50,683 bases of DNA from a virus, in IMG/VR virus record IMGVR_UViG_3300047160_007712, positions 1 through 50,683 of that record; one strand, given 5' to 3'. Below, one piece after another: positions 21,501-49,620 of the stretch. Both the position numbers and the translations under genes were made by a program. Below the pieces are notes generated by a model. The model had not been told where the DNA came from and did no database searches. It saw only the letters and a program-made list of their open reading frames with translations. Numbering within the stretch: the stretch's first letter is position 1; every line of letters begins with the position of its first letter.

Positions 21501-24297
21501 CGAAATGTTCTCGCGCAGTCAAACCGCCCTTGGTGGTTTGATACCCAACCAACGCCTCGACCAAGGCGTCTTTTCCATTAAACCCGAACAGCCGCGCCAC
21601 GTCATCCGCCGGGAAGCCGGACTTGCTAACATACCGCGGCGGCAATGCGGCGATCTGCTCGGGGGTTAGGTCAGCCGAACTCAGACTGTGCCTCGTTTTG
21701 CCCGTATCTTCCCCATACAATTGCCCCGCTCCAAGGAACAAATCGGCCGCAGTTGTGGGCCGATGTTGGACCTGTTCCTCAACCCTGACCTTCATCTCCT
21801 TGCGATTGTCCCGCCACTCCTTCCCTTGCCGGATGGTTTCATCCTTCTCGGCCTTCTTCATCGCGGCTGCGAGATCGCGGGCATAGCGTTCGTGGGCGAG
21901 CTTGGACAGATTAGCGTAGGTCTCAGCGTCCAGCCTAAGCCCTGAAGCTTTGAGGTTGTTGAGCTGGTCCTCAGCCATCGCTCGGGGCTCAACCTGCGCC
22001 ATCATCTCGCGCTGATGCAACGGCACACCTTCCCGTCGCCCAATCGCGCCCTCACCGGCTTGCTGGAACAACTCCTCCCATGTAGGTTCGTGCCCGAGCA
22101 ATGCCGTGATCCGATCCTTAATCGCCTTGAAGAACTCGGCGAGTTTCGCGAAGATCTGCCCGACGGGCGAATACTCCCGCACCGCTTCGCCCGCATCTCG
22201 GGCCTGGAGGTAGTGTCTAAACCCCTCCGCGATCGCTTCCTCGTCCCGCATCGCTGGGCTAGCATTTGGGTATCGTGTGTCGATGTGATATCGCTCGTGC
22301 CAACCCTCATCCCGCGCCGCATCGACCAGCGTCGTCCATTCATTATCCTTGATCAAGCCCTCTTGTCGAAGCCAATGCAAGCCCTCATGCCGCCCAGTTC
22401 CCAACGGGTTCCCGCTAAGCAAATCATGCACAATCCAACCCGAGCCCTCATGCAAGCCCTGGTACAGGCCCTGAGCCCGCCGACCACCGACCATCAACCC
22501 CGACGTGGTAACAACCTTCGCCTTTCCACCGGTGATCTTAGCAATTTCCTCCCGGGCGATTTTATCCAGCGCCGCTTGGTTCTTCGTCATCAACTCCGTC
22601 GGGAACGGCCGCGCTGACCAGTGCTCACTCATTTGCCTATAGGCCAACCCGTGGAAGATGTCCTGCATAGGTTCAACGACATTCCAGTCATTGGGCGTGT
22701 CGAGCCGAATCGTCACCATCTCCGGCCGACCCTCTCGGGCACCAGAGACCCGATAACCACTGATCGTCTCAGCTTCAGGGTACATCTGCTTGAGCTGCCG
22801 CACCAAATCCCTAATCAACGCCGGCCCAAAGTCATTCGCCCACATCCCGGCGATGCCGTTGATGTTTTCAATTTCAATGTTTTTGCCTTGCGGTGTGATC
22901 ACCATCCCACCGACCGGCCGACCATTCTCGTCGAGAATATCCAGCCCATGCATGCTTGGGCCGACATCGGTCTGGGCGAGACTCAGCTTCCTGTCCCCCA
23001 TTGAGAACATGGGCTCAAGGCCAAACGCGCCCCTCACCTGCGCGAGTGGATCATCCACCATCGCCTTGGGCACTGCCCCGGCCAGTTGCTTGGCCTCCTC
23101 GGCGCTCACCCCACCAGGCCAAATGGAAACAAAATCATCCAACTGCTTCGCTAACCCCGGGTCGATCTTCGCGATCCAATCCGCGATCGGTATCTCGACA
23201 TCCGCGCCCGCCTTCCGCGCTAGGTCGAGCTTCTTCCCAATCCCCTTCACCCAGCCCAGCAACCCATCGCCCGGTTCGGGGAGTTTGTCGCCATAGAGGC
23301 CGATTGCATCTTCGGCTGGGATGGATACATTACTCCGACCGTATTTGAATTGCACAAAATCCTTAAACAGTCGATCGGACAATTCTTTGGTCTTTGCATC
23401 CTGCGCCAGGGAGGTGATTCGATCAATCTCCTTCACCAACTCCGCATTGACCCCAGCCTTCACGGCGTCAATGAGCGGATGAATTCCCTTCGGCACTTCC
23501 CTCCCCGCTTCGCCCCATAGCCTCAATGCCGCGCCGAATTCCTTGCCGAATTCCCCACCCTTTACAAGCCCTGGTTCGGTGATCCGGCGCTCGAGCTCAC
23601 CCGACACATCGCGGCCGAGTTGTTCGGCAGTGCCAATGCGCCCGACCCAACCCGACGCATCAATCCCGACCTTGCCAAGGGCAGAGACCACATCCTGTGG
23701 CAACGCCCCAAGCGGCGCGGCTTCCTCCGCAACCATCGCGCCCGCACCATGAATCGCGCCCATGAGGAGGTTTGAAACGCCCTCCGTCGCAACCTCGCCC
23801 AGGTTCAACCCAACCGTCGCGGCGAAGTTCGACATCAGCGCCCGATGTTTGTCCAAGGCTGGGAACAACTCACCGACTTGATCCGGGGTGTATTGCGTAA
23901 TCGGCCGATTGAAGTCCTCCTTCGCGGCCGACCATCCAACCCCGAGTGTATCCCAGGGTGTATGCAACGCCTTGATCATCTGCGCCGACGTGTTCGCGGC
24001 GCTTGAGATGTTCGCCAAATTCCCCCAATCATCCTGACTGACCGCCGCGGCCATGGGGTGGGAATGGATATACGCCATCAGCTCCGCATCGCTCGACACC
24101 AACCGGGTCGCTAGTGAGCCCTTGTATTCCTTCTCAAACCCATCCGGATCGCCCGCGATGACCTCAGGCGCAACGCCCGATGAGTCGGACAGCGACGTAA
24201 TCCGCGCCGCTTCCTCGGGCGATGTCTCCATCCCCGTGACGGTTCGGGCCTTAGCGGCGGTGATGTAACTATCAACCGCGTCGGAATAATCGGTCAT
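18583..24297 (-). CDS. Giant internal virion/ejection-type protein (1904 aa) with a zincin HExxH motif
   Basis: Track ORF in the T7 gp16 position. HEGLH is at residues 637-641 (22375-22389), with EEAIAEGF downstream. Hydrophobic segments lie near the C-terminus. Confidence 0.7.
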   Translation of the reverse strand: MTDYSDAVDSYITAAKARTVTGMETSPEEAARITSLSDSSGVAPEVIAGDPDGFEKEYKGSLATRLVSSDAELMAYIHSHPMAAAVSQDDWGNLANISSAANTSAQMIKALHTPWDTLGVGWSAAKEDFNRPITQYTPDQVGELFPALDKHRALMSNFAATVGLNLGEVATEGVSNLLMGAIHGAGAMVAEEAAPLGALPQDVVSALGKVGIDASGWVGRIGTAEQLGRDVSGELERRITEPGLVKGGEFGKEFGAALRLWGEAGREVPKGIHPLIDAVKAGVNAELVKEIDRITSLAQDAKTKELSDRLFKDFVQFKYGRSNVSIPAEDAIGLYGDKLPEPGDGLLGWVKGIGKKLDLARKAGADVEIPIADWIAKIDPGLAKQLDDFVSIWPGGVSAEEAKQLAGAVPKAMVDDPLAQVRGAFGLEPMFSMGDRKLSLAQTDVGPSMHGLDILDENGRPVGGMVITPQGKNIEIENINGIAGMWANDFGPALIRDLVRQLKQMYPEAETISGYRVSGAREGRPEMVTIRLDTPNDWNVVEPMQDIFHGLAYRQMSEHWSARPFPTELMTKNQAALDKIAREEIAKITGGKAKVVTTSGLMVGGRRAQGLYQGLHEGSGWIVHDLLSGNPLGTGRHEGLHWLRQEGLIKDNEWTTLVDAARDEGWHERYHIDTRYPNASPAMRDEEAIAEGFRHYLQARDAGEAVREYSPVGQIFAKLAEFFKAIKDRITALLGHEPTWEELFQQAGEGAIGRREGVPLHQREMMAQVEPRAMAEDQLNNLKASGLRLDAETYANLSKLAHERYARDLAAAMKKAEKDETIRQGKEWRDNRKEMKVRVEEQVQHRPTTAADLFLGAGQLYGEDTGKTRHSLSSADLTPEQIAALPPRYVSKSGFPADDVARLFGFNGKDALVEALVGYQTTKGGLTAREHFAALVNAETDRRMEAVHGDLPENVLSEAKDRALSEAETNYLTEEYLGAAWRHGVTAVDKEVIKAEAVKDAGELPIGSMSSDKWGSVIRRAQELVIRSLANGDPATAVQALQRRARAGYIAAEVKEYEKRIKQMNALTETVGKMGSGEKLRDLPIDVEYLNYMHQIMIAVGYPVRRSVQAIAADIADRGTGTLADFTDAKQRFGRVMPVAEELINATAGNWKEMTGAQFAALHDSLKTLNHNGREERKIVSAGEKADLDDKIGELTQSLERFGEVKYAAGEGRAGWLEKGLRLPRVFSVMGLKAEFVLNWWDHFDQWGPWQQWGLRDLIDGNLQERTWNREFAKRFEDLKGDIDMSKPVSNPLFRVPFKGGGFGQLLDFNVENLIRIMLDMGSRDGPKSNLFKRANGYALKPEQVEGWVHEVAEKEHWDYVQRIWDDIFAEIKQRGDRSYRSLSGGVAPDSIKFQPIQTKFGTYRGGYFPTSDFHPTFHDGVNKDLAGKGDSLLGSNFISGLPTNSWARDRTGYVAPLALDLKSVPFLIRQQLHDIAMRPALINASKIFFDKRITSAISLHVGTEYADMLKSYVRDVANNRDYLTANQAYANSWAESLRRNLVTVLTGANLGTFAKHTPTALMTSIVQVGPEYFLRAVRALFEVNEETGQRNYKWIKEKSELLRARDRNWQETLYGQIASQTGESTLHMRAERLYSKPVALGDLLSSNPTFLGGYMRAIDEGRTQADAIYAGERAVRRAHGDVAITNMSQFQRSFNPWFTSIYNFWSTMFNRTMEVLWMAGEAAGHAKAGDRDAAMGMVPKIAAGLFAAAIWPAIIEQLVSPIKSEPGDSWGKKAAKAMAYTESSTLPLVRDVAHSLIEGGDVTLGLSQTGVKELQKVYEDVWKKQPMSPAHAQRLIKDFAGLAGLLLKGLVPQELGNVAAYAYGVKHGLEHPKGPWGWLVGARYGTGLHHSSTVINRIRGRAY

Positions 24298-26432
24298 TGT
24301 GGTTTAGCCTTGGCCCATTTGTCCATGTATTCCCTAGCAATATGCATTTGTAGGACTTGATCATCGCTCGGGTTCGCCCCACCCCAATTCGGCAATCGGC
24401 GAATGATGTCGGCCTCTTCGGGCGGGACATTCGTCACATCACCCGTCTCAAACCACGGCGGCTTGGCACCACCGCCAAACCAACCGCCCTCACTCCAGCC
24501 AGAGAACAGCCGCGTTCCGGCCTTTTGAATTTCCTCATCACTCATCGGCTTGTCATATTGGATTTGGTAATCGGTCATGATTTGATGCAGGGTGCCTTTA
24601 AACAGATTGTAATTGTCCGCATCACTCTTCAGGCCGATCTTGTTTATCATCGGCCCAAGAACCTGCAACGCATGGGGCACTTGCGGCGCGGCGTCCTCTT
24701 CATTGCGCACTTTCGCTTGCATATCGCTCAACACGCCCTTCCACTTGCGCGGTAGGTCAAGGGTCCATGGGTTAATTGCCAGGAAGTCTCGGCGGTCATC
24801 GCCCTGAGTGCTAATCCCCATCCCTTTCAAGCGATGGAATAGCTCCGATCGCTCTTCAGTCTCGCCCACATCGCCCTTCGCGTTGTCCTCCCAAGCGCGG
24901 CGGAACGTTGACAGCTTCTTCGGGTCGTTGAGCTGATACCACTCCAATGCCTGCTTCGCGGCCGGATCGGTCATGACCTCCTCGACCGAAGTCGGCAGGG
25001 TCTTGTTTGGGCCGACGCCGTTGTTAATTGCGTCGAAAATCGCACTGGATTGATGGAACTCAGTATCGTCGAATTCCTTCTTGTTCGCGCTGACTGCTGT
25101 ATCGTTTCGTTGGTGCGCCCGCTCCTTCAACGGCTCATTGCCGGGATCAATCATATCCGCCTGCCGATCGGTTTCGGCATTGATGTCGGCCAACGGCACA
25201 CGCTTGGCCAAGGCATGGTTGGCGATTTGGAGATACTGCGCGACGGTATGGAAACGATCTGATTTGTCCATCTCTGCATCTGGATTACCCGAGAACCAAG
25301 CCTTTGCGGCGCGATTGAACGAGCCGTATCGCTCCATGTATTGGCCAAATCTAATGTTAAACAATTTATCCTGCGCTGATCGATCGGCCAGGAACGCCTC
25401 CGCCGACATCGGTGGCATCTTGGCTTCATCAAGCCACTTATCCAGGTTATATGTCATGACCTGATACGCCCCAAGCCCATGTCCGGCCGGATGGTCTTTG
25501 GTCGCGGCGACTTCAGGCCCGGTGCCGGTGTAGTTTCCACCCTCAATCGCCTTGATCCCAATCTGGGCAGTGCCAGCGTCAACGATCTTTTCCCCGAACA
25601 TCAAATGCGCGCCAGACATCACTCCGGCCGAGAGGTTTCGTGACACTTGGTCGAGGAACTTCTCATTCACATACCCAAGCTCTTTATCAACCCGATCGCC
25701 CGAGACGTCCTTGTTGCTGATCGCCCGAGCCAACATCTCCTTGGCCTTTTGCGGCTCGGTGTCGGCCATAGCGTGAACTCTGTTAAGAAGATCGTCCGAC
25801 AACTGCATCGCGATTGTCAGGTTCAATTTGTCCTTCGACCAGCCCTTGGTCAAGGCCTGGCCCTGTAGTGTCTTTATCGAATCATTCCTCAACGCCTCGT
25901 ACATATCATCCGACGAGGGGTTTTGAACAATCCCACGACTATTTGCCTTGATCCGGGCGTCATCGGTTTCGTCGTTATAGACCTTGAGCTGCTGCCCAGT
26001 ATGACTGGCCATTTCATTCGACAGGCGAAATTGCCACATGCGGGATTCATTGTCGTAGAGCTGTTGCTCAAACGGGCCCGTGCCTTGGCCCCATTTGGTC
26101 CTTGCGGCATCGACCCGCTGTCGGGCTTGGTTGAATGCCTCGGGGCTGGCATTCGCGCCTTGTTTTGAAAGAAATTCGGAGGTAATATCCTGCGCTTCGT
26201 TTTGAAACCCGGTCAGTCGGGAATTGGCATCAGCGTGGATTTTGAACTCTTGCAGTGCATAGGCGCGGTCAAACATCTCCTTCCCAGCGCCCTGCTCAAC
26301 CGTGCCGAGATGGCCGATTGCCTCGGCGACGTTGATGCCAAAGGCCTGTGGCGGGACCTGCGGCCTTAACGGCGCGATTGGATCGACGTCTAAATGGCCC
26401 TGAATAACGCCGGTGTAGGGAACCTCAGGCAT
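24294..26432 (-). CDS. Internal virion protein with a lytic-transglycosylase-like domain (712 aa)
   Basis: AIEGGNYTG...GHGLGAYQVMTYNLDKW...AAKAWFSG (residues about 285-385) resembles the SLT E-x-G / G-L-x-Q / A-x-x-G motifs. Confidence 0.6.
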   Translation of the reverse strand: MPEVPYTGVIQGHLDVDPIAPLRPQVPPQAFGINVAEAIGHLGTVEQGAGKEMFDRAYALQEFKIHADANSRLTGFQNEAQDITSEFLSKQGANASPEAFNQARQRVDAARTKWGQGTGPFEQQLYDNESRMWQFRLSNEMASHTGQQLKVYNDETDDARIKANSRGIVQNPSSDDMYEALRNDSIKTLQGQALTKGWSKDKLNLTIAMQLSDDLLNRVHAMADTEPQKAKEMLARAISNKDVSGDRVDKELGYVNEKFLDQVSRNLSAGVMSGAHLMFGEKIVDAGTAQIGIKAIEGGNYTGTGPEVAATKDHPAGHGLGAYQVMTYNLDKWLDEAKMPPMSAEAFLADRSAQDKLFNIRFGQYMERYGSFNRAAKAWFSGNPDAEMDKSDRFHTVAQYLQIANHALAKRVPLADINAETDRQADMIDPGNEPLKERAHQRNDTAVSANKKEFDDTEFHQSSAIFDAINNGVGPNKTLPTSVEEVMTDPAAKQALEWYQLNDPKKLSTFRRAWEDNAKGDVGETEERSELFHRLKGMGISTQGDDRRDFLAINPWTLDLPRKWKGVLSDMQAKVRNEEDAAPQVPHALQVLGPMINKIGLKSDADNYNLFKGTLHQIMTDYQIQYDKPMSDEEIQKAGTRLFSGWSEGGWFGGGAKPPWFETGDVTNVPPEEADIIRRLPNWGGANPSDDQVLQMHIAREYMDKWAKAKPQ

Positions 26433-27010
26433 TAGAACATCCCTCCCGCAGCGCCGCTGCTACCACCACTCCCGCCCCAAAGACCCATCGTTCCACCCTT
26501 GAGCCATTCACTCGACACTGAACTCGCCGTGCCGAGGATCGACCCAATGCCGCCGATGATCCCGGCTTCTCGGGCGTTCTTCCCCGCGACCACATCGGCC
26601 GCGGCTTCAGCCCCAAACACATTCGCCTGTGCGCGATAGTTGTACGCAACCTTCGCGGCGTTTGATCGGGTGAAGGTCGTCTGCATGCGGTTGAGCTCGG
26701 CCGCACTCTGCTGTACGGCCTTGAACGAACCAGAGGTAACGGCCAATCCTGAGGCCGATTGGTTTGCAACAATCCGGCCCAACTGCTGCGCCCCGGCCTG
26801 GCCCTCTTGTAGGGCCTGAGCCTCACCAGCTTGAATTGCAAATTCAGAATTCTGCTGCATGATTTGGGCGTTGAGCCTCGCAACCCCGGCTTGATAGTCG
26901 TAGTATTGTTGTTGGGCCTGGCCACCATAGATTTGGCCTAGAAGGCCGCTAAACCCCCCGGCAATGGATGTGCCAATGCTAAACGCGCCGATGTTCTCTT
27001 GCAGCGACAT
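26432..27010 (-). CDS. Internal virion protein (192 aa), in the T7 gp14 position
   Basis: Track ORF that is Q/A/G-rich with a Gly-rich C-terminus. The call rests on position and size only. Confidence 0.5.
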   Translation of the reverse strand: MSLQENIGAFSIGTSIAGGFSGLLGQIYGGQAQQQYYDYQAGVARLNAQIMQQNSEFAIQAGEAQALQEGQAGAQQLGRIVANQSASGLAVTSGSFKAVQQSAAELNRMQTTFTRSNAAKVAYNYRAQANVFGAEAAADVVAGKNAREAGIIGGIGSILGTASSVSSEWLKGGTMGLWGGSGGSSGAAGGMF

Positions 27011-32593: not shown

Positions 32594-32824
32594 CTAGGCG
32601 TGATCGGGCTCCTTGGTTGTGTTCAAGCCCGCGATTGGGATCACATCCCCGGGCAAGAACGGGTTGACGATAACATAGATCGAAACAATCGTCGTGGCCC
32701 AGGATTGGATGTAGTCCACAACCCACTGTGGGATACCGAGCGGGAAGTGGACCGCGCCTTGGGATGCCGCGGCGACTACGGCCATGACGATGGAGATGGC
32801 CAGGCCCCATTGCTTTTGGGTCAT
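32594..32824 (-). CDS. Holin candidate, two predicted transmembrane helices (76 aa)
   Basis: The hydrophobic stretches are WGLAISIVMAVVAAASQGAV and WATTIVSIYVIVNPFL. It follows the tail fibre, as T7 gp17.5 does. Confidence 0.5.
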   Translation of the reverse strand: MTQKQWGLAISIVMAVVAAASQGAVHFPLGIPQWVVDYIQSWATTIVSIYVIVNPFLPGDVIPIAGLNTTKEPDHA

Positions 32825-33063
32825 TTGGGTGGGTCCTTGGATGCGGTTGGAGGCGATTTCACCGCGTCGAGTTGCTTTTTTAAATCCGCGATTTCCTTTT
32901 CATCGGATTGAACCTTGGCGTTCAGCGCTGCAACCCGGCCATTGGCCTCAGTGAGGAGCTGGACGTAGCTGTCCACCACTGGGTCCGGCGGGGGCGGGCT
33001 TGGGCTTTGGGCCAGCGCTGGGCGCAGGGTGAGCAACATGCTGAGCAGCAATAATCTCTTCAT
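32821..33063 (-). CDS. Signal-anchor/coiled-coil protein (80 aa), i-spanin-like
   Basis: MKRLLLLSMLLTLRPALA/QS, then a Pro-rich stretch, then the coiled coil VVDSYVQLLTEANGRVAALNAKVQSDEKEIADLKKQL. It overlaps the fibre 3' end by 116 nt. Confidence 0.5.
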   Translation of the reverse strand: MKRLLLLSMLLTLRPALAQSPSPPPPDPVVDSYVQLLTEANGRVAALNAKVQSDEKEIADLKKQLDAVKSPPTASKDPPK

Positions 33064-35698
33064 CGTGCTTTACCTCGGTTTTGAGTTCTTGGACGGATTT
33101 GATCAACAGGGCGATTAGGGGCAGAGGTTCAAGCGATTGCGGCTGTGGATCACCGTCGGTGGTTAAGGCCCCAAGCTCGCCCTCAACCGCCTCGGGAAGA
33201 ATTGGCTGCACCTCGGTGGTTAGCAGGCCACTATGGCGCTTGAAGTCATCGCGGTAAATTCCTACATCGGCCCAATTGAAGGTTACGGGCCGGAGCTTCA
33301 TCAACTTGTCCAGCGCCCCATCGGCCATAGGCTCGATGTTGTGTTTGACCCGTGGGTCGGAGGTGAGGGAGATTGAGCCCTCGTTGGTTGAGTCGATCCA
33401 GAGTTGAGCAGCCGAACCGGTCCAGAAGATGTTGAAGTGGTTCGCGCCGTATGAGCCCGTCGCGCCGTTGCGAGATGTCCAACCCTGAGCCGCGGCGAAA
33501 CCATTGTAGCCGACGCAGAACAGACATGGAACAGTGTCGGAAGTACTGCCGTAGAACAGGAAGCTGGCGGTGCCGTTGGTCAGTGCGGACTGAAATGCGT
33601 GGAAGCCGTAGTTGAACGTCGCGCCGCTGAAGCCGGTTATGCCAATGGCGGCGGTCGAGCTGGTCGAACCCATCGCCGCGATCCAAAGGCCGACTTTGAA
33701 GTTGGTGGTTAGGTTCGGGACATAGGAGCCGTTGTTTTGGACATCGATCTCATCGCCGATCAACTGCCCATCGCCGCCCGAGACGATGTGCGCGACATCA
33801 ATCCCGCCCCAGATTTCGCAGTTCGAACACGACGAGGCGATGTCGCCCTCACGGCGCAGGCCAGTTGAGCCACCGCCGTTGGTTTGATAAAGGACGTTGT
33901 GGAACCACCCGCAGTCAAATTCCTGGGCCTCTAGCGCGGTGGTTTCGTTGTCGCAGCCGTAGAATAGTCCCTGCTGTGGGCCAGAGTTGTTGTTAAGCCT
34001 CACGGCGAAGCGGTTGTAGGAGTTGTTGAAGCCCCCAGCCCATGGCGGGTCTGAACCACCGGGCGCGGTGTTGGGGGAGTTGAAGTTGAAATCTGTCACG
34101 GCGTTGTTGCTGATCACGCCAGTGGCGTTGATCATCGTGGTGTATTTGAGTCGGCCGGATGAACACCCAAGCCCCGAGTCGATGATGCCGGAAGACCACG
34201 TGACACAATCGTTGGCGGTTGGGACCGTGGCGATGGTAGCAAGGCCCGAAGCGGCGTTGGTTGAATTGCCAAGCGCGGTGAGGACGCCTGTGCCAGCAGC
34301 GGTGCCAGACACGGCGGTGCCAGTTGAGGCGTAGTAAGCCAATTGGCCCGACGTGCCGGAGTTGACTGTGCCGGAGCCTGAGCCTGAGCAACTGGCCCAA
34401 GCCATGGCCGTCACGCCGGCGTTGGTGATTAGACATTGGTTCGCGGTGCCGAGGGCGGTTAGGCCTGTGCCACCATAGGCAAAGCCGATTGCGGTGCCTT
34501 GCCAAGTGCCGGTGGCGATGGTGCCGATGGAGGTCAGGGATGAGAGGGTTGTCACGGCGGAGGTTGCAAAGCCGCCAGAGCCGTTTGCCGCAATGCCAAG
34601 CGCCGTGATCACGCCCGCGCCAACGGTCAGGCCCGAGACGGTGGTGCCAGTGGCGGCATATTGGGCGAGCTGGCCAGAAGTACCGGAGGAGACGGTCCCC
34701 GAACCGCCAGAGGTGGTGCATGAACCGCCAGCATCAGCGATGGTGCCGCCAGTGCCAACGTTCAAGCAATGGCCGGTGGTTAGGGTGCCAGTGACCGCGG
34801 CATATCCGCCCGCCGTGCCATTAGCAATTGCAAGAGATGCAAGAACACCTGTCCCAGCGCCGGAGAGATGGGCGATGGTATAGCCCGTGGCGTTGGTGAG
34901 TGTGCCAGATGCGGGCGTGCCGAGGGCCGGGGTCACCAAGGTTGGGGAGGTTGCGAGGACAACTGATCCGGTCCCAGTCACGGCCTTCTCACCGAGAACA
35001 TTAGCGTTGTTGTATTCAATATTCCCGCTCGTGCCGCCCGAGATCGCGGTTGTGCCGACGATCATGTTGTTACTCGCCGCGCATGTGGCCCATATCATCG
35101 CGGTGGCGGAATTGTTGGTTGTGAGGCATTGATTGGACGTGCCGAGGGCCAAAAGGCCGGTGCCACCAGCGGTGAATGGGACCACAGCCTCGCCGCTAAC
35201 GGTGGTGCCGGTCGAGGCGTAGTAGGCGATCTGGCCGATGGTGCCGGACGAGACGGTTCCACTTCCGCTGCCGGTAGCGCATGCAGCCCACATCATGGCA
35301 GTCGCGCCGGAGTTGGTGACTAGGCATTGGCCGGATGTGCCTAGGGTGGTGAGGCCCGTACCGCCTTGGGTAAAGCCGACGGGGACTGTTGGGAAACCGC
35401 CGGTGGAGTTGGCGGCGATGCCTAGGGCGGTGAGAACGCCAGTGCCAGCATTGGTGCCACTGACAGCCGCGCCGGTTGTGGCGTAGTAGGTCAACTGCCC
35501 ACCGGTGCCGGAATTGACAGTGCCAGAGCCCCCACCACCGCCGCCATGGGCTTGAACCCATGCGGTCGAGGCGCAGGCGTTGGAGTTGTCGCCCGCGGGC
35601 CGGGTCGGGCAGAAGACCGGGGCCTGGGCGTGGGCCTGGGACGCACCGAGGGCGATGAAAGTGGCGAGGAGAAGCCTTTTGAACATCGGGATCCTCAT
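32948..35698 (-). CDS. Tail fibre with a C-terminal S74 intramolecular-chaperone domain (916 aa)
   Basis: SDPRVKHNIEPMADGALDKLMKLRPVTFNW (residue 780 onward, about 33061-33361) is the endosialidase-chaperone signature. GSGTVxSGTxGQLxYYAxTG repeats are present. The N-terminus MFKRLLLATFIALGASQAHA/QA looks like a signal peptide. Confidence 0.8.
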   Translation of the reverse strand: MRIPMFKRLLLATFIALGASQAHAQAPVFCPTRPAGDNSNACASTAWVQAHGGGGGGSGTVNSGTGGQLTYYATTGAAVSGTNAGTGVLTALGIAANSTGGFPTVPVGFTQGGTGLTTLGTSGQCLVTNSGATAMMWAACATGSGSGTVSSGTIGQIAYYASTGTTVSGEAVVPFTAGGTGLLALGTSNQCLTTNNSATAMIWATCAASNNMIVGTTAISGGTSGNIEYNNANVLGEKAVTGTGSVVLATSPTLVTPALGTPASGTLTNATGYTIAHLSGAGTGVLASLAIANGTAGGYAAVTGTLTTGHCLNVGTGGTIADAGGSCTTSGGSGTVSSGTSGQLAQYAATGTTVSGLTVGAGVITALGIAANGSGGFATSAVTTLSSLTSIGTIATGTWQGTAIGFAYGGTGLTALGTANQCLITNAGVTAMAWASCSGSGSGTVNSGTSGQLAYYASTGTAVSGTAAGTGVLTALGNSTNAASGLATIATVPTANDCVTWSSGIIDSGLGCSSGRLKYTTMINATGVISNNAVTDFNFNSPNTAPGGSDPPWAGGFNNSYNRFAVRLNNNSGPQQGLFYGCDNETTALEAQEFDCGWFHNVLYQTNGGGSTGLRREGDIASSCSNCEIWGGIDVAHIVSGGDGQLIGDEIDVQNNGSYVPNLTTNFKVGLWIAAMGSTSSTAAIGITGFSGATFNYGFHAFQSALTNGTASFLFYGSTSDTVPCLFCVGYNGFAAAQGWTSRNGATGSYGANHFNIFWTGSAAQLWIDSTNEGSISLTSDPRVKHNIEPMADGALDKLMKLRPVTFNWADVGIYRDDFKRHSGLLTTEVQPILPEAVEGELGALTTDGDPQPQSLEPLPLIALLIKSVQELKTEVKHDEEIIAAQHVAHPAPSAGPKPKPAPAGPSGGQLRPAPH

Positions 35699-38538
35699 TT
35701 AATCGGGAACGGCCAGATTGGGAACCTCCCACTCGCGCCGGGAAGGCCGCTAAGGACGATCGAGCCAGTCGCGCCGCCGTTTGTCACGGATGTAACCTCG
35801 ATCGGGCCGGTTATGAATGGCCATGGGCTATAGGTGGTGTCAGGCTGTTGGATCGGCGGCCAGAAGAAGATGCCGTTGGTGTAGAAGCTGGCGCCGAGAA
35901 AGTAGTCAGAGAGGGTCGTGGCATCGCCGGTTGGTGACCAGGTTACGTTAGAGACTGTCATGGAGCCGGTTGAGAATGTGCCATAGTAGACTTGATTTCC
36001 CGGCAGCCATTGGTTGGTGTTGATGACGACGAAGCTGCCACCGCCAAGGGTGGTTGCATTGATGGTGTTGGAGGAATAAATGCCGCCAACGAGATACAGG
36101 CCGTTTTGCTGCTGGGTGGTGATGGGGAAATTGCCCGATCCATCCGCCGCGCCGACGGCAATGACAAGGAAGATAATGCCGCTGTTGATGTGGTAGAGCA
36201 ACCACCCCGGCGCGACCTTGGCGTTGCCGAGGGCGGAACCGTAGGTTGAGGACTTTAGTGTGAATGACATGTAATCGCCCGACCATGTGGGGCCGACTGA
36301 CATGTCGTTGGAGACTGAGATCGTCGCCTCACGCGGGACCTGAACAGTCCATGTTTTGCCAAGTGTGTCACGGAACCATTTGCCGGACTGTACCATTGTC
36401 CATGTGTCGAAGATGATTTCATCACTAAGCTGTTGGGTGATTACGGTGTAGGACGGGTCGTTGCCGCTGATGGCGGGGGCGTTAGTGCGGCCATACCAGC
36501 GGGTTTGATCAACTGGCAGGCCGAATGTTGGGTCGTTGGCGTTGAAGCGTGGCGCACCAGCGAGCAGGCCGCCGGTGTAGTTCATGGCTTGTTGCACCCA
36601 CGGCGCGGAGAAGGTGATGGTATCACCCGAACCAACGCCCGGGCTGACGACATTGGCGCTGATCGTGACGGTGGTGGCGGTGTAGGACACGACTGTGGTG
36701 TTGGCCGGGATCGAGGCGGAATTCGCGGCGGTGGCGTCGATGACCCGCATGCCGGTGACTACATTAGACGGAACGCCGCCGGAGAAGTTGAGCACCCTGC
36801 TGCCGATTGCTGTCGTGCCGCTGGTTGTGGCGTTGAAGGCCGCCGAGATCTGGTTGGCCATGGTGTAGAAGTTGCAGTTGTCAATTTCCAGCATTGGCGC
36901 GCCGTTGTTGCATTGGACTATCGTCGTCATGCGCGGTACATCACCAATGGCGCAGTTTTTGAATCTGAATGGTATAGTAGCGAAGACGGTGGTGAGGAGA
37001 TATGGTGGGATGAGCCCGCCCGTTGGGTTGAGGTTGAACTTGCAATCTTCGAATGTTATCCCGGAGTTGAAGCCCAATGCGCCGGAGACGTAGCCGAGGA
37101 GCGTTACATCCTCACAGTAGCAACTCCGAAACGAACACGGCCCTGCCTGGCCCATTTGCAGACTGAACCACCGCTGGCAGGATTGGAAGCTGGTCGAGAT
37201 GGCGTTTAGTTGCCAGAGGCCATGGAATTGGCCATAGTTGGTGTTGTCGAGCGCATAGCACAGCGTCCGCATTTGGCAGTTGCGCAGCTCTACCAATCGA
37301 CTGTTTTGTTGGTAGATGCCGATGCCGATTGAGCCAACGTCGATGATGCAGTCGTTAAACTTGGCGAAGTCACCTTGGGAGTTGGCGTTTAGGCCAGCGC
37401 CATAGCCCATTACGAAGCCCGCAATGCGGACTGACTCCATGGTTACGCTGGAGGAAAACAGTGGGTTGTTGTAGGTTGTTATTGTCGGGGCGATTGCCAG
37501 AACCCAAGCGGGGAATGTGATGTTTGGGTACGGGGCCGATGGTGGGCCGCCGCTGTACGGGTCGATCGCCACGCCGACAAGTGGGGTGTTGTTCTGAAGC
37601 CCGCCCGGGGTTGAGCCGGAGGCGTTGAAGTTCGGATCCATCCAGTCGAATTCGTCGTCTGAACGGGCGCCGCTATTGCCTTGGGCGTTTTGGGCGAAAT
37701 TGTACATCGGGCCGAAGAGGGAAATGTTGCGCAGCCCACACATCCGTACGCCTTGGAAGACGATCGCCGGCGCGTTGTTGATCGTTGAGAAAATCTTCGC
37801 GCCGGCTTGGGTAAAGTCTAGGGGAAATCGGTTCGCGCCAACGAGCGAGACCTCATGAAAGGCCTCGCCGTAACCCATGTGGAGGGTGTTGGTGATCTTG
37901 TATGCGCCGGATGGTACATAGACCTCCGGCCAGTTCGATTGCATTGCGGCGTTGATGGCGTTTTGGAACGCGGTTGTGTTGTCGGTGCCGGTGATGTTGG
38001 TGGAATTGCCTGGGTACCAGGCTGAGAGCCAGAGGTTTGGGGCGGTGGCTACTGGGTTGCTAACGGTGATTGAATTGCCCGGGCCGATGCCAGTGATGGT
38101 GGTGTTGAGTGGGACGTTTGTGCCGCCACCTGAGTGCCAGTTGACTAGGGCAATGCTCATGCCGGTGGCGATGAAGCCGTTGTTTTGAGAGATTAGAGTT
38201 ATAGTGGTTGTGCCGTTGGCCGAGACGTTCAGATCGCCGCCGCCGGTGTTGTAAGCGGCATCTGCCACCGCGCCGAACTGTTTGACGTTGAGTTCCAGCG
38301 CGACTTGAAGCCAGGCGGCCGAGCCATTGCCGCCGGTCGGGACAATGATCGAGCCACCATTGTCGACGTAGGTTCCAGCGGGGGCGCCAACAGCGCCGGC
38401 GAACACATTCTGGCCGCCGTCATTGGAGGTGGTGTAACCCGCGGTTTGGGCGATGAAGCCGGTTGATGCAGGCGTGAGGAGACGTAACGCCGCGATGTTT
38501 GAGACAATTTGAGGATAAAAGCCGCCGACGATTGCCAT
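35695..38538 (-). CDS. Tailspike/depolymerase, pectate-lyase-type beta-helix (947 aa)
   Basis: LNVKQFGAVADA... and TDNTTAFQNAINAA...VYVPSGAYKITNTLHM are typical N-terminal motifs of the pectate_lyase_3 / GH28-like fold. Confidence 0.65.
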   Translation of the reverse strand: MAIVGGFYPQIVSNIAALRLLTPASTGFIAQTAGYTTSNDGGQNVFAGAVGAPAGTYVDNGGSIIVPTGGNGSAAWLQVALELNVKQFGAVADAAYNTGGGDLNVSANGTTTITLISQNNGFIATGMSIALVNWHSGGGTNVPLNTTITGIGPGNSITVSNPVATAPNLWLSAWYPGNSTNITGTDNTTAFQNAINAAMQSNWPEVYVPSGAYKITNTLHMGYGEAFHEVSLVGANRFPLDFTQAGAKIFSTINNAPAIVFQGVRMCGLRNISLFGPMYNFAQNAQGNSGARSDDEFDWMDPNFNASGSTPGGLQNNTPLVGVAIDPYSGGPPSAPYPNITFPAWVLAIAPTITTYNNPLFSSSVTMESVRIAGFVMGYGAGLNANSQGDFAKFNDCIIDVGSIGIGIYQQNSRLVELRNCQMRTLCYALDNTNYGQFHGLWQLNAISTSFQSCQRWFSLQMGQAGPCSFRSCYCEDVTLLGYVSGALGFNSGITFEDCKFNLNPTGGLIPPYLLTTVFATIPFRFKNCAIGDVPRMTTIVQCNNGAPMLEIDNCNFYTMANQISAAFNATTSGTTAIGSRVLNFSGGVPSNVVTGMRVIDATAANSASIPANTTVVSYTATTVTISANVVSPGVGSGDTITFSAPWVQQAMNYTGGLLAGAPRFNANDPTFGLPVDQTRWYGRTNAPAISGNDPSYTVITQQLSDEIIFDTWTMVQSGKWFRDTLGKTWTVQVPREATISVSNDMSVGPTWSGDYMSFTLKSSTYGSALGNAKVAPGWLLYHINSGIIFLVIAVGAADGSGNFPITTQQQNGLYLVGGIYSSNTINATTLGGGSFVVINTNQWLPGNQVYYGTFSTGSMTVSNVTWSPTGDATTLSDYFLGASFYTNGIFFWPPIQQPDTTYSPWPFITGPIEVTSVTNGGATGSIVLSGLPGASGRFPIWPFPIK

Positions 38539-38541
38539 TGG

Positions 38542-39183
38542 TCAGAGCCCACAGACGAGTTTGATGACATCAGTGCCGATGCCGTTGACGGTGACGGTGA
38601 CGGAGCCGCCGGATGGTGTGCCCTCAACGGCGTAACTGGTGTTGGCCGGGGTGGTGCGGTCGGCGGTGACACAGTTAGGCTGGGAAGAGCCGGTGTCGGA
38701 GAAGGTTACGTTAGCTGTGCCCGCGGAGAGAGTTACGGAGGTGTTGTAGGATGAGCCAGAGCTGCCACCGCCCATGCCATTGCCACCGGCGGATGAGAGC
38801 CAGGAATTGTAAACGGAGGAGAATTGGAGTTGGAAGCTGGTGTTGGGCGTTGTGCAGGTGGTTGGGTAGCTGCCGATGGTTGAGCCGTCGGTGGTGAGGA
38901 GGTTGAGGGTGGTGATGGCGTAGCGGCAGGTGAGTTGGATGATCTGGCCGTCCCATGGCGGGTTGGGGAGGGTGATGTTCCAAGTCGTGATCGCGCCGAT
39001 GGGATAGAGGTTGAGGTTGGTTGGGTGGTTGAAGCTCGCGGCGACGGTGGTGTTGGTGACGGGGGAGGTAGGGACGACGTTGATCACGCCAGTTGCGTAG
39101 ATCGGCGGATTGATGTAGCCCTGCTGCGCCAGAGCAAGCCCTGGAGCCAACGCCAGTGCCAGTGTGGTTAGCCACTTGATCAC
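38542..39183 (-). CDS. Signal-peptide protein (213 aa), fibre/adaptor-like
   Basis: GTG 39183 overlaps the upstream TGA (GTGA). The N-terminus is (M)IKWLTTLALALAPGLALA/QQ. Contains WNITLPNPPWDGQIIQL. Confidence 0.55.
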   Translation of the reverse strand: MIKWLTTLALALAPGLALAQQGYINPPIYATGVINVVPTSPVTNTTVAASFNHPTNLNLYPIGAITTWNITLPNPPWDGQIIQLTCRYAITTLNLLTTDGSTIGSYPTTCTTPNTSFQLQFSSVYNSWLSSAGGNGMGGGSSGSSYNTSVTLSAGTANVTFSDTGSSQPNCVTADRTTPANTSYAVEGTPSGGSVTVTVNGIGTDVIKLVCGL

Positions 39184-40149: not shown

Positions 40150-40770
40150 TCAGTTCTCCGTCCAGATGAAGGTGATGTTGATAGCGCCGGTGGAGATGGT
40201 CTTGCCGTCGAGATTGACGCAGATTTGCTGGACCACTGTCCCGGCCTTGGGGATTTCAAAGGCCTGGGTGATGGGGAGGACATCTTGGGGAGAGGAAACA
40301 AAGGTCGGGACATTGGGAGAGGTGGTGACTTGGAAGGCCTGCGCGAAGGCCGCGAGCAGGGAAGGGGTGGAGTCGGTGACAGTTGGATTGGCGGAATAGG
40401 AGACGAGAGTCGCGGTTGAGGCGGAGTTGAACGGGCTCAATGGCGCGGCGACGGGAAGGGCAAGGCCGGTGTTGGCGGTGCCGCCTGTGTCGAGGGAGTG
40501 GTTGAGGTTGATCATGATCGGGGTCGTGATGGCGGTGCCAGCTGAGCCCGAGACGATGATTTCCTTCAACGAGACATTGCGCGACGTTGAGCCGTTTAGG
40601 CACATTAGGTCTGTGGCCGCTGCGGGCGGGACCATGAGCACGCCCGAGGCCGAGTAGGTTGGTTGGGGGACGTAGCCGGAGATCACGCCGGGTTGTGGCA
40701 CGACGTTGACTTGGGCGAATGCTGGGGCAGTGAGCCCCAGCAACGCGGCGGTGGTGAGGAGCTTGCGCAT
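40150..40770 (-). CDS. Signal-peptide protein (206 aa), function unknown
   Basis: ATG 40770 with AGGAC about 9 nt upstream. The N-terminus is MRKLLTTAALLGLTAPAFA/QV. Confidence 0.6.
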   Translation of the reverse strand: MRKLLTTAALLGLTAPAFAQVNVVPQPGVISGYVPQPTYSASGVLMVPPAAATDLMCLNGSTSRNVSLKEIIVSGSAGTAITTPIMINLNHSLDTGGTANTGLALPVAAPLSPFNSASTATLVSYSANPTVTDSTPSLLAAFAQAFQVTTSPNVPTFVSSPQDVLPITQAFEIPKAGTVVQQICVNLDGKTISTGAINITFIWTEN

Positions 40771-40781
40771 TGAGGATGGTC

Positions 40782-41087
40782 CTATCTGACTTGAAACCAA
40801 GACAAGGTCGGGGCGTTGAAGATGAATTTGACCGATGCCTTGGCGTTGATGGTTTGCGCCGTGAAGGCCGCGCTCATGGTATGCCCACTGCCGGCTTGGA
40901 TTGTTACAAGGCTCCCTAGGGTGGTGTCGGTGTTGACTGTTACTGTATCCCCGTTTGCAGCGGGGGAAGGGAGGGTTATGTTCCAAGCCGTAGGGGCAGT
41001 ACCACTCCATGTGATGACGCCACCTGGGCCGGCGGTGGTGTTCACCGTCCCAGATAGGCCCTTGACGATTGAGTGGGGGTTTGACAT
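40782..41087 (-). CDS. Small structural protein (101 aa) with a WNITLP motif
   Basis: ATG 41087 lies 1 nt after the upstream stop. Begins MSNPHSIVKGLSG and contains TAWNITLPSPAANGDTVTV. Confidence 0.55.
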   Translation of the reverse strand: MSNPHSIVKGLSGTVNTTAGPGGVITWSGTAPTAWNITLPSPAANGDTVTVNTDTTLGSLVTIQAGSGHTMSAAFTAQTINAKASVKFIFNAPTLSWFQVR

Positions 41088-48358: not shown

Positions 48359-49036
48359 TCAGTACTGCATTGAGAACGGGGCAAGGGCAAGGGTGTTCGC
48401 GGAGGACGCGAAGGTCTGGCCGGTGTTGTTTTGAAGGAAGGTGTAGAACTCGAGGGCCTCAATGAAGGTTGGCGCGGAGGCGTAGATGTTGGCCGCGGTG
48501 ATGGTTGTGGAGGGGAGGGCGATAACGGCGTCGGGAGAGCGGGCTTGAGAGGCGTTGGAGACAGTGGTTTCGAAGTGGGTGCCATCGTAGGATGGGATCC
48601 ACCAGATCGATGCAGCGGCGCCGGCGGTAAGGGCGGTGCCAATAGTGCCGAGGGTGAGGAATAGGCGGCCGATCATGCCTTGAGCGGTGTTGGAGTTGGT
48701 GAATTTGCCCGATGAGCCACCAACGGATGACAGGGCGGTGTTGCCAGTGGCGAGGGAATTCATCTCGGTGGTGAGGAGAGTGAGGGCGGTGGCAAGCAGG
48801 CCGTTGTTGGAAGTGCCCGGGCCCCAGAGGAATTGGGTGGCGGCGAGAGCGGCGGTGGGAATGAGGAAGGGCGACAGAGCAGCGGCGCCAAGGAATGCAC
48901 GGCGAGAGATGGCGGGGACGAAGCGGGATTGACCTTCGTAGTGTTCGAAATGGCCTTCGCCCTCGAGGACGGGGTCGATGCCAGGTGGGTCGAAGCCAAC
49001 TAGGCGTGGGCGATAGATGCGGCAGAGCTTGGTCAT
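48359..49036 (-). CDS. Protein with a Tat-type signal peptide (225 aa)
   Basis: The ATG overlaps the upstream stop (ATGA). Residues 44-65 read SRRAFLGAAALSPFLIPTAALA/A, that is S-R-R-x-F-L, a hydrophobic region and AxA. Confidence 0.6.
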   Translation of the reverse strand: MTKLCRIYRPRLVGFDPPGIDPVLEGEGHFEHYEGQSRFVPAISRRAFLGAAALSPFLIPTAALAATQFLWGPGTSNNGLLATALTLLTTEMNSLATGNTALSSVGGSSGKFTNSNTAQGMIGRLFLTLGTIGTALTAGAAASIWWIPSYDGTHFETTVSNASQARSPDAVIALPSTTITAANIYASAPTFIEALEFYTFLQNNTGQTFASSANTLALAPFSMQY

Positions 49037-49620
49037 TGAAGTGGAAGTCCACCATTAGCCGGGGCTGCGGCGGTGAGATCGTTCGAGTTCACCGGCCCGT
49101 TCAGGCCACCACCACTGTTTTTAGCTGGAACGATGTACCATGGTTCTACCAGTGCCTTGGCGGCGGCGGAGAGACAGTTGATCGTCGGGCCGTTGTTGGG
49201 GAAGTTCTGGACGACCAGCGCGACGGTGAGGTAGGCGGTGTTGGCGGTGCCACCTAGCAGTTGGCCGGGAGTGGCGAAGAGGGACATGAGCTGTTGCTGG
49301 ATCGGGGCGGTGAGGGATTCGAATTCGGCGTAGTTGATGCAGTTGATGATCTGGGAGCCGGTGACGTAGTAGGTGGTTGGGATGGTGCCGGTTACGGTCC
49401 AGGCGTTGATTGCGGCCAGTTTATCGGTCGTGGTCAGGCCAAAGAGCGATGTACCCGCTACGCCTGAGGGCATTGCGCCGGACGAGGCGCTGGATAGGTT
49501 CCAGTCAGCGACCAGCGTGGCGTAGTAGGTCGCTGGGTCAGTCACGGCGAGGGAGGTGCTCGCCCAGAGCAGGGAGAGGGAGGCGGCGAGGAATGCGCGG
49601 AGGCGGCTATTGCTGAACAT
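49033..49620 (-). CDS. Signal-peptide protein (195 aa)
   Basis: Track ORF with N-terminus MFSNSRLRAFLAASLSLLWASTSLA/VT. Confidence 0.6.
   Translation of the reverse strand: MFSNSRLRAFLAASLSLLWASTSLAVTDPATYYATLVADWNLSSASSGAMPSGVAGTSLFGLTTTDKLAAINAWTVTGTIPTTYYVTGSQIINCINYAEFESLTAPIQQQLMSLFATPGQLLGGTANTAYLTVALVVQNFPNNGPTINCLSAAAKALVEPWYIVPAKNSGGGLNGPVNSNDLTAAAPANGGLPLQ

Follow-up and report, generated by a model that had tools for sequence, protein, structure and literature searches.

A soil podophage tail-fibre protein with a predicted export signal

A complete soil podophage genome encodes a tail-fibre protein that looks built for export into the periplasm, combining a predicted cleavable signal peptide, nine cysteine pairs and a C-terminal S74 chaperone domain of the self-cleaving type. 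A quarter to a half of its relatives in uncultured phages look the same, a pattern that the textbook cytoplasmic assembly of tailed phages does not explain. The window we analysed is the whole 50,683-nt stretch of the IMG/VR record, a complete, circular podophage genome of ~50.6 kb whose ends overlap by about 97 nt. It encodes TerL, portal, MCP, tubular A/B, internal virion proteins and an endolysin, and the fibre gene lies in its tail module between the tailspike gene and the tubular-protein genes. No integrase, repressor or tRNA was found. Full-text literature searches returned no report of Sec-signal tail fibres in tailed phages, and we found no published description of such a protein.

All four features listed in the preliminary description — the ORF, a C-terminal S74 signature, a repeat-built body and a signal-peptide-like N-terminus, also seen in the downstream 80-aa ORF — are present in the sequence, and the observation is thus confirmed. 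The ORF (32948..35698, minus strand) encodes 916 aa, and its first ATG overlaps the stop of the upstream 947-aa tailspike-like gene (ATGA). The second ATG (M5, 35686) is preceded by AGGA about 6 nt upstream and is the start used by the public gene call (912 aa), so that the N-terminus given in the preliminary description is probably 4 residues too long, without consequence for the signal. We also considered an internal start that would give a signal-less isoform, but no in-frame ATG, GTG or TTG occurs between codons 5 and 69.

The fibre matches Pfam PF13884 at 43.4 bits against a cut-off of 22 (aa 780-838), and its SDPRVK motif supplies the Ser780/Lys785 dyad. The region aligns to the solved putative tail fibre 8JOV (SDERLK; E = 1e-5) up to the terminal helix, where LIKSVQELKTEV aligns with LVKAVQELRSQV. 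The body contains four copies of GSGTV.SGT.GQ..YYA.TG..VSG (aa 57-81, 145-169, 332-356, 441-465) and three copies of GGTGL..LGT..QCL.TN...TAM.WA.C (aa 112-140, 178-206, 409-437); at the DNA level the first repeat is a 4-copy family of 70 nt at 70-73 % identity. The Pfam scan of the fibre found only PF13884, and neither it nor any other protein scanned in the window has the T7 gp17-type tail-attachment domain (Phage_T7_tail).

The N-terminus has the layout of a Sec/SPase-I signal peptide: an n-region (MFKR), an h-region of 9-11 residues (LLLATFIAL(GA)) that is too short for a membrane span, and a polar c-region (GASQAHA) ending in A-H-A, with small residues at -3 and -1 and Gln rather than Pro at +1; the same pattern is seen in the signal-like homologues. 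There is no lipobox Cys, the first Cys being residue 30, and the n-region has K-R rather than a twin arginine. Only 6 of 43 proteins of this genome pass the same hand-written rule, against 1/17 and 0/17 in two cultured podophages. The signal assignment rests on rules and on comparative evidence, not on a trained predictor.

The cysteines are a feature absent from the preliminary description. The mature chain has 18 Cys in nine local pairs 3-16 residues apart, an arrangement seen in 0 of 200,000 random placements. Four of them (C125, C140, C311 and C327) are invariant in an alignment of signal-bearing relatives, and the equivalent motif in signal-less relatives has no Cys. Signal-peptide-like starts occur in 27-29 of 120 database homologues and 36 of 77 IMG/VR fibre relatives (24-47 %), and these proteins are 4-5 times richer in Cys: 1.23 % versus 0.27 % among the database homologues (p = 8e-13) and 1.43 % versus 0.28 % among the IMG/VR fibres (p = 1e-10), with an even Cys count in 23 of 31. 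To ask whether this link merely reflects host taxon, we compared proteins within single phages, and rejected that explanation: the fibre is richer in Cys than its signal-less neighbours in 27 of 33 loci (p = 1e-5), and signal-like neighbours have 1.43 % versus 0.61 %.

We next examined whether the hydrophobic segment behaves as a conserved, buried docking helix, the outcome that had been set beforehand as a refutation of the signal. In two groups of orthologues it is less conserved than the residues after it (pairwise identity 0.51 versus 0.74, and 0.59 versus 0.70/0.89), and it carries indels but keeps A-x-A, as signal peptides do and buried docking helices do not. Signal-less relatives lack the segment altogether and start at the residue that follows the predicted cleavage site. 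In relatives, the signal thus precedes exactly the residue that is Met1 of signal-less fibres carrying the same N-terminal module, and cleavage would recreate a canonical fibre. The window's fibre does not itself carry this canonical module, having only 27 mature residues before a Gly6 linker.

Signal-bearing fibre homologues lie in podophage structural modules in all six looked-up loci whose neighbours were checked for phage genes (L001, L004, L005, L006, L009 and L020), and signal-like proteins cluster around such fibres (15.4 % versus 5.7 % of neighbours, p = 4e-4). In the window itself, four or five further late proteins bear signal-like starts. The coordinates of the fibre's parts and of its neighbours are collected below.

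Table. Parts of the fibre ORF and selected proteins of the window (all on the minus strand; functions predicted from sequence)
Coordinates	Feature	Observations
35627..35686	Predicted Sec/SPase-I signal peptide, M5-A24 (MFKRLLLATFIALGASQAHA, followed by QAP)	Alternative start M1 at 35698
35546..35626	Mature N-terminal module, Q25-H51 (QAPVFCPTRPAGDNSNACASTAWVQAH)	C30/C42 pair and a GDNS...A.T.WV motif, followed by the Gly6 linker; the same motif occurs internally in other fibres (P0036 and P0045); no Pfam tail-attachment domain found
34229..35545	Fibre shaft, aa 52-490	Both repeat families; Cys pairs 125/140, 191/206, 311/327 and 422/437
33362..34228	Orphan distal (presumed receptor-binding) region, aa 491-779	Cys pairs 498/512, 582/596, 624/627 and 725/728
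33071..33361	S74 intramolecular chaperone/autoprotease domain, aa 780-876	Ser780 and Lys785 in SDPRVK
32948..33070	Low-complexity C-terminal extension, aa 877-916 plus stop	Last 116 nt (32948-33063) overlap the next gene in another frame; beyond the end of the S74 alignment
32821..33063	80-aa protein with signal peptide (MKRLLLLSMLLTLRPALA/QSP), Pro-rich linker and coiled-coil-like segment	Stop overlaps the start of the next gene (ATGA); weak PHROG 2619 hit only
32594..32824	76-aa holin-like protein	Two hydrophobic spans; no family hit
35695..38538	947-aa tailspike-like protein without a signal peptide	PHROG 2234 tail spike, E = 1e-7; stop overlaps M1 of the fibre ORF, 9 nt upstream of M5; 12 Cys, by our reading mostly in recurring N-C/D-C positions, unlike the fibre's local pairs
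38542..39183	213-aa late protein with a signal-like start (MIKWLTTLALALAPGLALA/QQGY)	GTG start; 4 Cys
40150..40770	206-aa late protein with a signal-like start (MRKLLTTAALLGLTAPAFA/QVNV)	2 Cys
49033..49620	195-aa protein with a signal-like start (MFSNSRLRAFLAASLSLLWASTSLA/VTD)	No family hit

We considered whether the 80-aa protein could be an i-spanin, but its h-region is too short for a membrane anchor and no lipobox o-spanin exists in the window. The distal region of the fibre has no homologue among the 120 relatives and none in a 5.8-billion-protein search, and a single-sequence AlphaFold2 model of aa 490-916 is unusable (mean pLDDT 31). Scans of collections of genome contigs and viral contigs with the single protein found nothing, and only alignment-based scans were productive. 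Megablast of half the genome against cultured phages found no match, and tblastn of the shaft and of a signal-bearing relative (L071) against cultured phages found only short matches, the best of which, in Bradyrhizobium phage ppBjS10J-1, is a signal-less fibre. The paper on the Tunturi acidobacterial phages mentions neither signal peptides nor fibres.

Several known systems share parts of this architecture. Tail fibres and spikes with a C-terminal S74 chaperone (K1F endosialidase gp17, the T5 L-shaped fibre pb1 and 8JOV) likewise have the PF13884 domain with its SDxxxK dyad and terminal helix, an elongated repeat-built body and a gene in the tail module; they are not known to have a signal peptide, and they fold in the cytoplasm and carry an N-terminal virion-binding domain. 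The mosaic adhesive trimer (MAT) fibres of Bdellovibrio bacteriovorus are exported and act outside the cytoplasm: all 21 have a signal peptide followed by a trimeric fibre, and 13 end in an active, autoproteolytic S74 domain (PMC10769870). MATs are chromosomal genes of a predator whose products sit on the cell surface or vesicles, and no sequence match to the solved MAT fragments or to any PDB chain was found at E < 0.01 for the whole protein. MATs have a conserved ~130-aa beta-rich domain straight after the signal; in our protein 27 residues and the Gly6 linker are followed directly by shaft repeats, a layout that, without alignment to a MAT N-domain sequence, makes a 130-aa domain unlikely. 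In filamentous phages (pIII and pVIII of Ff), virion proteins are made with signal peptides, pIII needs periplasmic disulfide formation and assembly takes place at the envelope, but inoviruses extrude through the envelope without a cytoplasmic capsid, whereas the present phage is a T7/P22-type tailed particle, which is packaged in the cytoplasm. Tailed phages also export non-structural proteins with Sec or lipoprotein signals (spanins, SAR endolysins, T4 Spackle, T5 Llp, Cor), often encoded next to receptor-binding or lysis genes and acting in the envelope; these are small and not fibre-like, and none is known to have fibre repeats or an S74 domain. Finally, giant proteins next to a TerL-portal block in Acidobacteriaceae MAGs share the shaft repeat modules, including the Cys-stapled motifs, with a signal-like start and about 1.4 % Cys; they are 1785-3077 aa long, start with a TTTTVQGTVY-type domain, mostly show no SD.R.K (S74) motif and lie in large chromosomal contigs beside a conserved phage-derived block.

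The preliminary description held that a signal peptide and an S74 fibre on one protein are contradictory under the standard assembly model, an interpretation that our results support only in part. The protein is an S74-type fibre in a podophage tail module with the full grammar of a cleavable Sec signal, but the MAT fibres show that the two features are not contradictory in themselves; the real tension is with cytoplasmic virion assembly, and it extends well beyond this gene, to many of the fibre's relatives and to several neighbouring late genes. Our preferred, still tentative, explanation is that the gene encodes a real tail-fibre-type protein made as a precursor with a functional Sec signal peptide. 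In this view, the unfolded chain is exported into the periplasm of a diderm host, probably an acidobacterium, and signal peptidase I cuts after AHA to leave Gln25 at the N-terminus; the host Dsb system then oxidises the nine cysteine pairs, which would staple the beta-hairpin repeats of the shaft and the tip; and the S74 domain drives trimerisation and cuts itself off before Ser780, giving a disulfide-stapled trimer of about 755 residues per chain. The fibre would meet the DNA-filled, tailed particles only when the holin breaches the inner membrane, shortly before or during lysis, docking through its short N-terminal module, possibly onto the signal-less 947-aa tailspike or another tail protein. 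The analysis itself establishes the sequence grammar, the S74 domain, the cysteine-pair architecture, the gene's place in the tail operon, the recurrence in many phages and the collinearity of the relatives' mature ends with canonical fibre N-termini, whereas export, cleavage, disulfide formation, trimerisation in the periplasm and S74 self-cleavage are inferred from sequence. Export, cleavage, disulfide formation and periplasmic trimerisation are, taken together, likely; late attachment to the virion, likewise inferred, is the weakest step, as likely as not even if export is real. No tailed phage is known to add fibres from the periplasm, attachment would have to occur in the short interval around lysis, the signal-less tailspike could be this phage's only virion receptor-binding protein, and all relatives come from uncultured phages for which no virion proteome exists.

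The nearest competing explanation, which we consider less likely, is that the fibre is exported but is not a virion component, being secreted with the other signal-bearing late proteins as a phage "secretome" while the virion uses the tailspike. It could then act as a free trimeric lectin or adhesin in the periplasm, at the cell surface or in the lysate, masking or stripping receptors on debris and neighbouring cells, loosening the exopolysaccharide matrix together with secreted beta-helix enzymes, or making the infected cell sticky for new hosts. This reading is consistent with the tailspike just upstream, with the clustering of signal-bearing late proteins, with the lack of a known mechanism for post-export attachment and with the cellular analogues, since MAT fibres are surface fibres and the giant acidobacterial proteins may be similar. 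In L009, moreover, three signal-bearing proteins lie between the fibre and the endolysin/holin/spanin genes; two of them, of about 450 aa and read by eye as beta-helix-like, begin almost directly after the signal with no room for a docking domain, and look more like soluble secreted enzymes than virion parts. In L005 a signal-bearing Beta_helix protein follows the fibre. However, the collinearity of signal-bearing relatives with ordinary signal-less fibres, including within one prophage (L023), is hard to explain if they never dock; signal-bearing and signal-less forms alternate among close homologues as if interchangeable; and in the parts of L001 and L004 that could be read, every large fibre-like protein has a signal. 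A 755-residue S74-matured fibre would also be an expensive soluble lectin, and Sec alone does not take it across the outer membrane.

It is improbable that the hydrophobic N-terminus is not used for export and that the fibre assembles in the cytoplasm in the standard way, with the segment serving as a trimer-buried docking element or as a membrane-active element during adsorption. This is the standard model for tailed phages, and cysteine pairs could oxidise spontaneously after release in oxic soil, but homologues keep the signal grammar while the sequence drifts, signal-less relatives lack the segment completely, a functional Sec signal in the cytoplasm would be recognised by the export machinery, and the tight link between signal and Cys density is what export predicts. 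Least likely is a recently captured host surface-fibre gene, or a chimera with one, carried as cargo with no role in the phage's own cycle. The shaft repeats do match the giant acidobacterial proteins at up to 59-82 % over short stretches, and local GC is a little higher than in the flanks; yet the ORF overlaps the tailspike gene's stop and the next late gene, GC3 is typical of the genome, the DNA repeats are old, the same architecture recurs in many unrelated phage genomes, and no lysogeny genes were detected that would make cargo useful.

Collectively, these results raise the possibility, doubtful on present evidence but not excluded, of a widespread and so far undescribed class of tailed-phage receptor-binding fibres that are exported by Sec, disulfide-stapled and S74-matured in the periplasm, and that join the cytoplasmically built particle only once the holin has opened the inner membrane. 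This would be an extracytoplasmic branch of tailed-phage assembly, common in phages of soil Acidobacteriota and also present in phages with other signal-peptide styles that look like other phyla. It would explain why such fibres may fail when expressed in the cytoplasm and would show a natural way to make disulfide-stapled, very stable receptor-binding proteins, while signal plus paired Cys gives a simple sequence signature to split metagenomic "tail fibres" into two biologically different classes. The finding also ties this phage group, whose host is probably an acidobacterium, to Acidobacteriota, a dominant soil phylum with hardly any cultured phages. Tail fibres decide which hosts a phage can infect and are assumed to fold and dock in the cytoplasm; if a quarter to a half of this fibre family is made for export, either tailed phages have an assembly step outside the cytoplasm, with consequences for lysis timing and for dependence on host Dsb and Sec, or many soil phages secrete free fibre-like proteins late in infection, with consequences for receptor masking, matrix degradation and host-range prediction from genomes.

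The preliminary description was correct in what it observed, and the coordinates it gave for the ORF are exact. The ORF encodes 916 aa on the minus strand, and its first ATG overlaps the stop of the upstream 947-aa tailspike-like gene (ATGA). Because the second ATG (M5) has an AGGA about 6 nt upstream and is the start used in the public gene call (912 aa, P0001), we take M5 as the likely start. The C-terminus is a bona fide S74 intramolecular chaperone: PF13884 scores 43.4 bits against a cut-off of 22 at aa 780-838, the Ser780/Lys785 dyad sits in SDPRVK, and the region aligns to the solved tail fibre 8JOV up to the terminal helix. The last ~40 residues are low-complexity, and their coding sequence overlaps the next gene by 116 nt. 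The body contains four copies of GSGTV.SGT.GQ..YYA.TG..VSG and three of GGTGL..LGT..QCL.TN...TAM.WA.C; at the DNA level the first is a 4-copy 70-nt family at 70-73 % identity, so these are old duplications. The N-terminus reads MFKR / LLLATFIAL / GASQAHA / QAP, with a charged n-region, a 9-11-residue h-region that is too short for a membrane span, A-x-A, no lipobox and no twin arginine. There is no in-frame start codon between codons 5 and 69 that could give a signal-less isoform.

We further found a feature absent from the preliminary description, namely 18 cysteines that all fall in nine local pairs: 30/42, 125/140, 191/206, 311/327, 422/437, 498/512, 582/596, 624/627 and 725/728. Random placement of 18 Cys never produced nine successive pairs 16 residues or less apart in 200,000 trials. 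Four of these Cys are invariant in an alignment with four signal-bearing relatives, whereas in an alignment of signal-less relatives the equivalent repeat reads GGTGLTAVGATGNVLTSNGS-AWVS, without Cys. Paired cysteines that bracket hairpin-sized segments are the signature of proteins that fold in an oxidizing compartment. The signal-less tailspike also has 12 Cys, but most occupy recurring N-C/D-C/E-C positions (RNC, DNC, KNC, EDC, NDC) that read like a stacked ladder inside a beta-helix rather than disulfide pairs.

Coordinates of the features discussed, in the window unless another record is named
Feature	Coordinates	Strand	Description
Fibre ORF	35698..32948	-	916 aa; probable start M5 at 35686
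Tailspike-like gene	35695-38538	-	947 aa, signal-less
80-aa and 76-aa genes	32594-33063	-	chained to the fibre gene by overlaps (116 nt, then ATGA)
213-aa protein	38542-39183	-	GTG start at 39183
206-aa protein	40150-40770	-	start at 40770
~100-aa protein	40782-41084		signal-less
195-aa protein	49033-49620	-	
Internal virion (ejection) proteins	18583-27010	-	1904, 712 and 192 aa
Endolysin	17889-18356	-	GH24-type
Terminal overlap	1-97 and 50587-50683		first ~97 nt recurring at the end
Sign changes of GC skew	near 4000 and 26000		
505-aa fibre-like protein, signal-bearing proteins and lysis cassette in locus L009	8468-19370		T7-like phage from a metagenome

The overlap between the two ends shows that the window is a circularly assembled, complete genome of about 50.6 kb. 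The late genes on the minus strand run in the order TerL, portal, MCP and a Bbp16-like protein; several small proteins; the tailspike; this fibre; an 80-aa signal-bearing protein and a 76-aa two-span holin-like protein; tubular A- and B-like proteins; and three internal virion proteins followed by the endolysin, which was assigned from its sequence motif rather than from a family hit. The plus strand carries DNA polymerase A, a PD-(D/E)XK nuclease and a primase/helicase-like protein. Searches of the genome found no integrase, repressor or tRNA, and no protein scanned in the window has the T7 gp17 N-terminal tail-attachment domain. The nearest cultured relatives (Ab31-like, BPP-1-like and other podophages) share only 30-35 % identity in the tubular B protein. 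GC skew changes sign twice without following the coding strand, as the minus-strand genes at 18.5-26 kb have negative skew and those at 28-50 kb have positive skew.

When the same hand-written signal rule, which misplaces some cleavage sites, was applied to the whole genome, 6 of 43 proteins passed: the fibre, the 80-aa protein, the 76-aa membrane protein, and proteins of 213, 206 and 195 aa, all with even Cys counts in the mature part. In two cultured podophages, 1/17 and 0/17 proteins passed. The 213-aa and 206-aa proteins lie in the late region between the MCP and tailspike genes, and the former shares a 'WNITLP.P' motif with the signal-less ~100-aa protein; none of the 213-, 206- and 195-aa proteins has a family hit. 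The 80-aa signal-bearing coiled-coil protein and the 76-aa two-span protein may be lysis or fibre-maturation factors. No lipobox outer-membrane spanin was found anywhere in the genome, and the endolysin lies 15 kb away. In contrast to the Cys-rich exported late proteins, as predicted here, the three internal virion proteins contain no cysteine at all in 2808 residues, and the proteins that we take to be their counterparts in three related phage loci (L005, L006 and L009), by position and by hits to the window's internal virion proteins, are also Cys-free. This may reflect avoidance of disulfide trapping during passage through the periplasm.

We next asked whether the feature recurs. Of the 120 best homologues from a search of 5.8 billion proteins, 27-29 begin with signal-like segments, mostly ending A-x-A/Q, and these have a median of 1.23 % Cys against 0.27 % in the rest (p = 8e-13). 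An independent alignment-based scan of IMG/VR returned 79 loci, in which 36 of 77 fibres with an intact 5′ end are signal-like, with 1.43 % v 0.28 % Cys (p = 1e-10) and an even Cys number in 23 of 31. This is not a host-taxon artefact, because inside the same phage locus the signal-bearing fibre is richer in Cys than its signal-less neighbours in 27 of 33 cases (p = 1e-5), and signal-like neighbours have 1.43 % against 0.61 %. Signal-like proteins are also three times more frequent around signal-bearing fibres (15.4 % v 5.7 %, p = 4e-4). ORF calling in these loci was crude, and the comparisons cover only 20-kb slices of the related genomes.

Where genomic context was looked up, signal-bearing homologues sat in phage structural modules. 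Locus L001 encodes portal and MCP, then signal-bearing proteins of 442, 900 and 272 aa, then tubular proteins; L004 encodes portal, then signal-bearing proteins of 1061 and 1089 aa; in L005 a signal-bearing fibre is followed by a signal-bearing Beta_helix protein; in L006 a signal-bearing 133-aa protein is followed by the signal-bearing fibre; and L020 has five signal-like proteins next to TerL, portal and MCP. Locus L009 has a T7-like order in which a signal-less, Cys-free 505-aa fibre-like protein is followed by four consecutive signal-bearing proteins (1547, 242, 450 and 452 aa) and then by a complete lysis cassette, comprising an M15 endolysin, an i-spanin-like protein, a holin and a lipobox o-spanin.

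The preliminary description had named a conserved, buried docking helix as a finding that would overturn a signal peptide, and our comparisons argue against such a helix. In two groups of orthologues the hydrophobic segment is less conserved than what follows (pairwise identity 0.51 v 0.74, and 0.59 v 0.70/0.89), and it carries indels yet keeps A-x-A. When seven signal-bearing fibres were aligned with ten signal-less ones, the signal proved to be a pure N-terminal add-on: the predicted cleavage site coincides with Met1 of signal-less fibres, and the same module (I.NLP.a..LtG.E....vQ.G.s.r.T..QI) follows in both, with an extra Cys pair inserted in that module in locus L071. One prophage (L023) has a signal-less and a signal-bearing fibre with this module side by side. 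Cleavage would therefore recreate a canonical fibre N-terminus. The window's own fibre, however, lacks that module; its mature end is QAPVFCPTRPAGDNSNACASTAWVQAH followed by Gly6, the motif in it (GD.S...A.T.FV) occurs internally in other fibres, and its closest signal-less analogues (relatives P0107, P0024 and L108) have only about 6 residues before the Gly linker.

Taken together, the sequence indicates that the protein is exported, cleaved, oxidized, trimerized by S74 and self-cleaved. The sequence features, their recurrence and their correlation are shown by the analysis, whereas each of these steps, like any later attachment to virions, is inferred from sequence alone, AlphaFold2 having yielded no usable structure; we consider real export likely. 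That an S74 fibre can take this route is established for the Bdellovibrio MAT fibres, all 21 of which have a signal peptide and 13 of which end in an S74 domain, with self-cleavage shown for Bd3182 (PMC10769870). The interpretation in the preliminary description, that a signal peptide and an S74 domain on one protein are contradictory, was thus only partly supported: the two features are compatible, and the tension lies instead with a particle that is packaged in the cytoplasm.

As to how, or whether, such a fibre would reach that particle, our preferred reading is attachment once the holin has opened the inner membrane. This inference is supported by the gene's place next to the tailspike gene, whose stop the fibre ORF overlaps, by the interchangeability of signal-bearing and signal-less homologues, and by the collinear mature N-termini. 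A rough calculation of our own makes it physically feasible, since about 1 uM of trimers and an on-rate of 1e5-1e6 per M per s give attachment within seconds. The main rival is that the fibre and the other signal-bearing late proteins are a secreted set that never joins the virion, which is favoured by the presence of a signal-less tailspike in this phage, by the absence of room for a docking domain in the signal-bearing proteins of L009, read by eye as beta-helix-like, and by their location next to the lysis cassette. Given export, we regard the two fates as close to evenly balanced, with a slight preference for attachment.

The host is probably, though not certainly, a member of the Acidobacteriota. 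An alignment-based scan of one genome per species returned 22 loci, at least 13 of them in Acidobacteriota MAGs, and a GC content of 58-60 % fits that phylum, but the link rests on short shared repeat modules. Some IMG/VR relatives have Lys-rich signal peptides that we read as typical of low-GC hosts, so the trait is probably not confined to one phylum. Eleven Acidobacteriota MAG contigs (L011, L012, L015, L016, L017, L021, L026, L027, L029, L030 and L031) carry giant ORFs of 1785-3077 aa with 24-44 Cys, which have a signal-like start followed by TTTTVQGTVY.ANG.P.SGTL and share the fibre's repeat modules. In ten of the eleven loci a TerL gene follows on the same strand, in most of these as part of a conserved block (TerL, 342 aa, portal, 221 aa, 322 aa, head-tail adaptor, 144 aa), and between species TerL is 57-66 % identical, the portal 70-79 % and the 322-aa protein 82-88 %; L031 has the giant ORF, but no part of the block was detected in the stretch examined. 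This looks like a vertically kept, possibly domesticated phage-derived element.

No cultured phage in the collection searched has a signal-bearing relative, and full-text literature searches found no description of Sec-signal tail fibres in tailed phages; one recent preprint even uses the P22 tailspike as the example of a fibre-like protein that needs no signal. We regard the protein as an S74 tail fibre that differs from those already described in tailed phages by its predicted Sec signal, and that is MAT-like in its inferred export logic. The more radical reading, an extracytoplasmic branch of assembly, remains possible.
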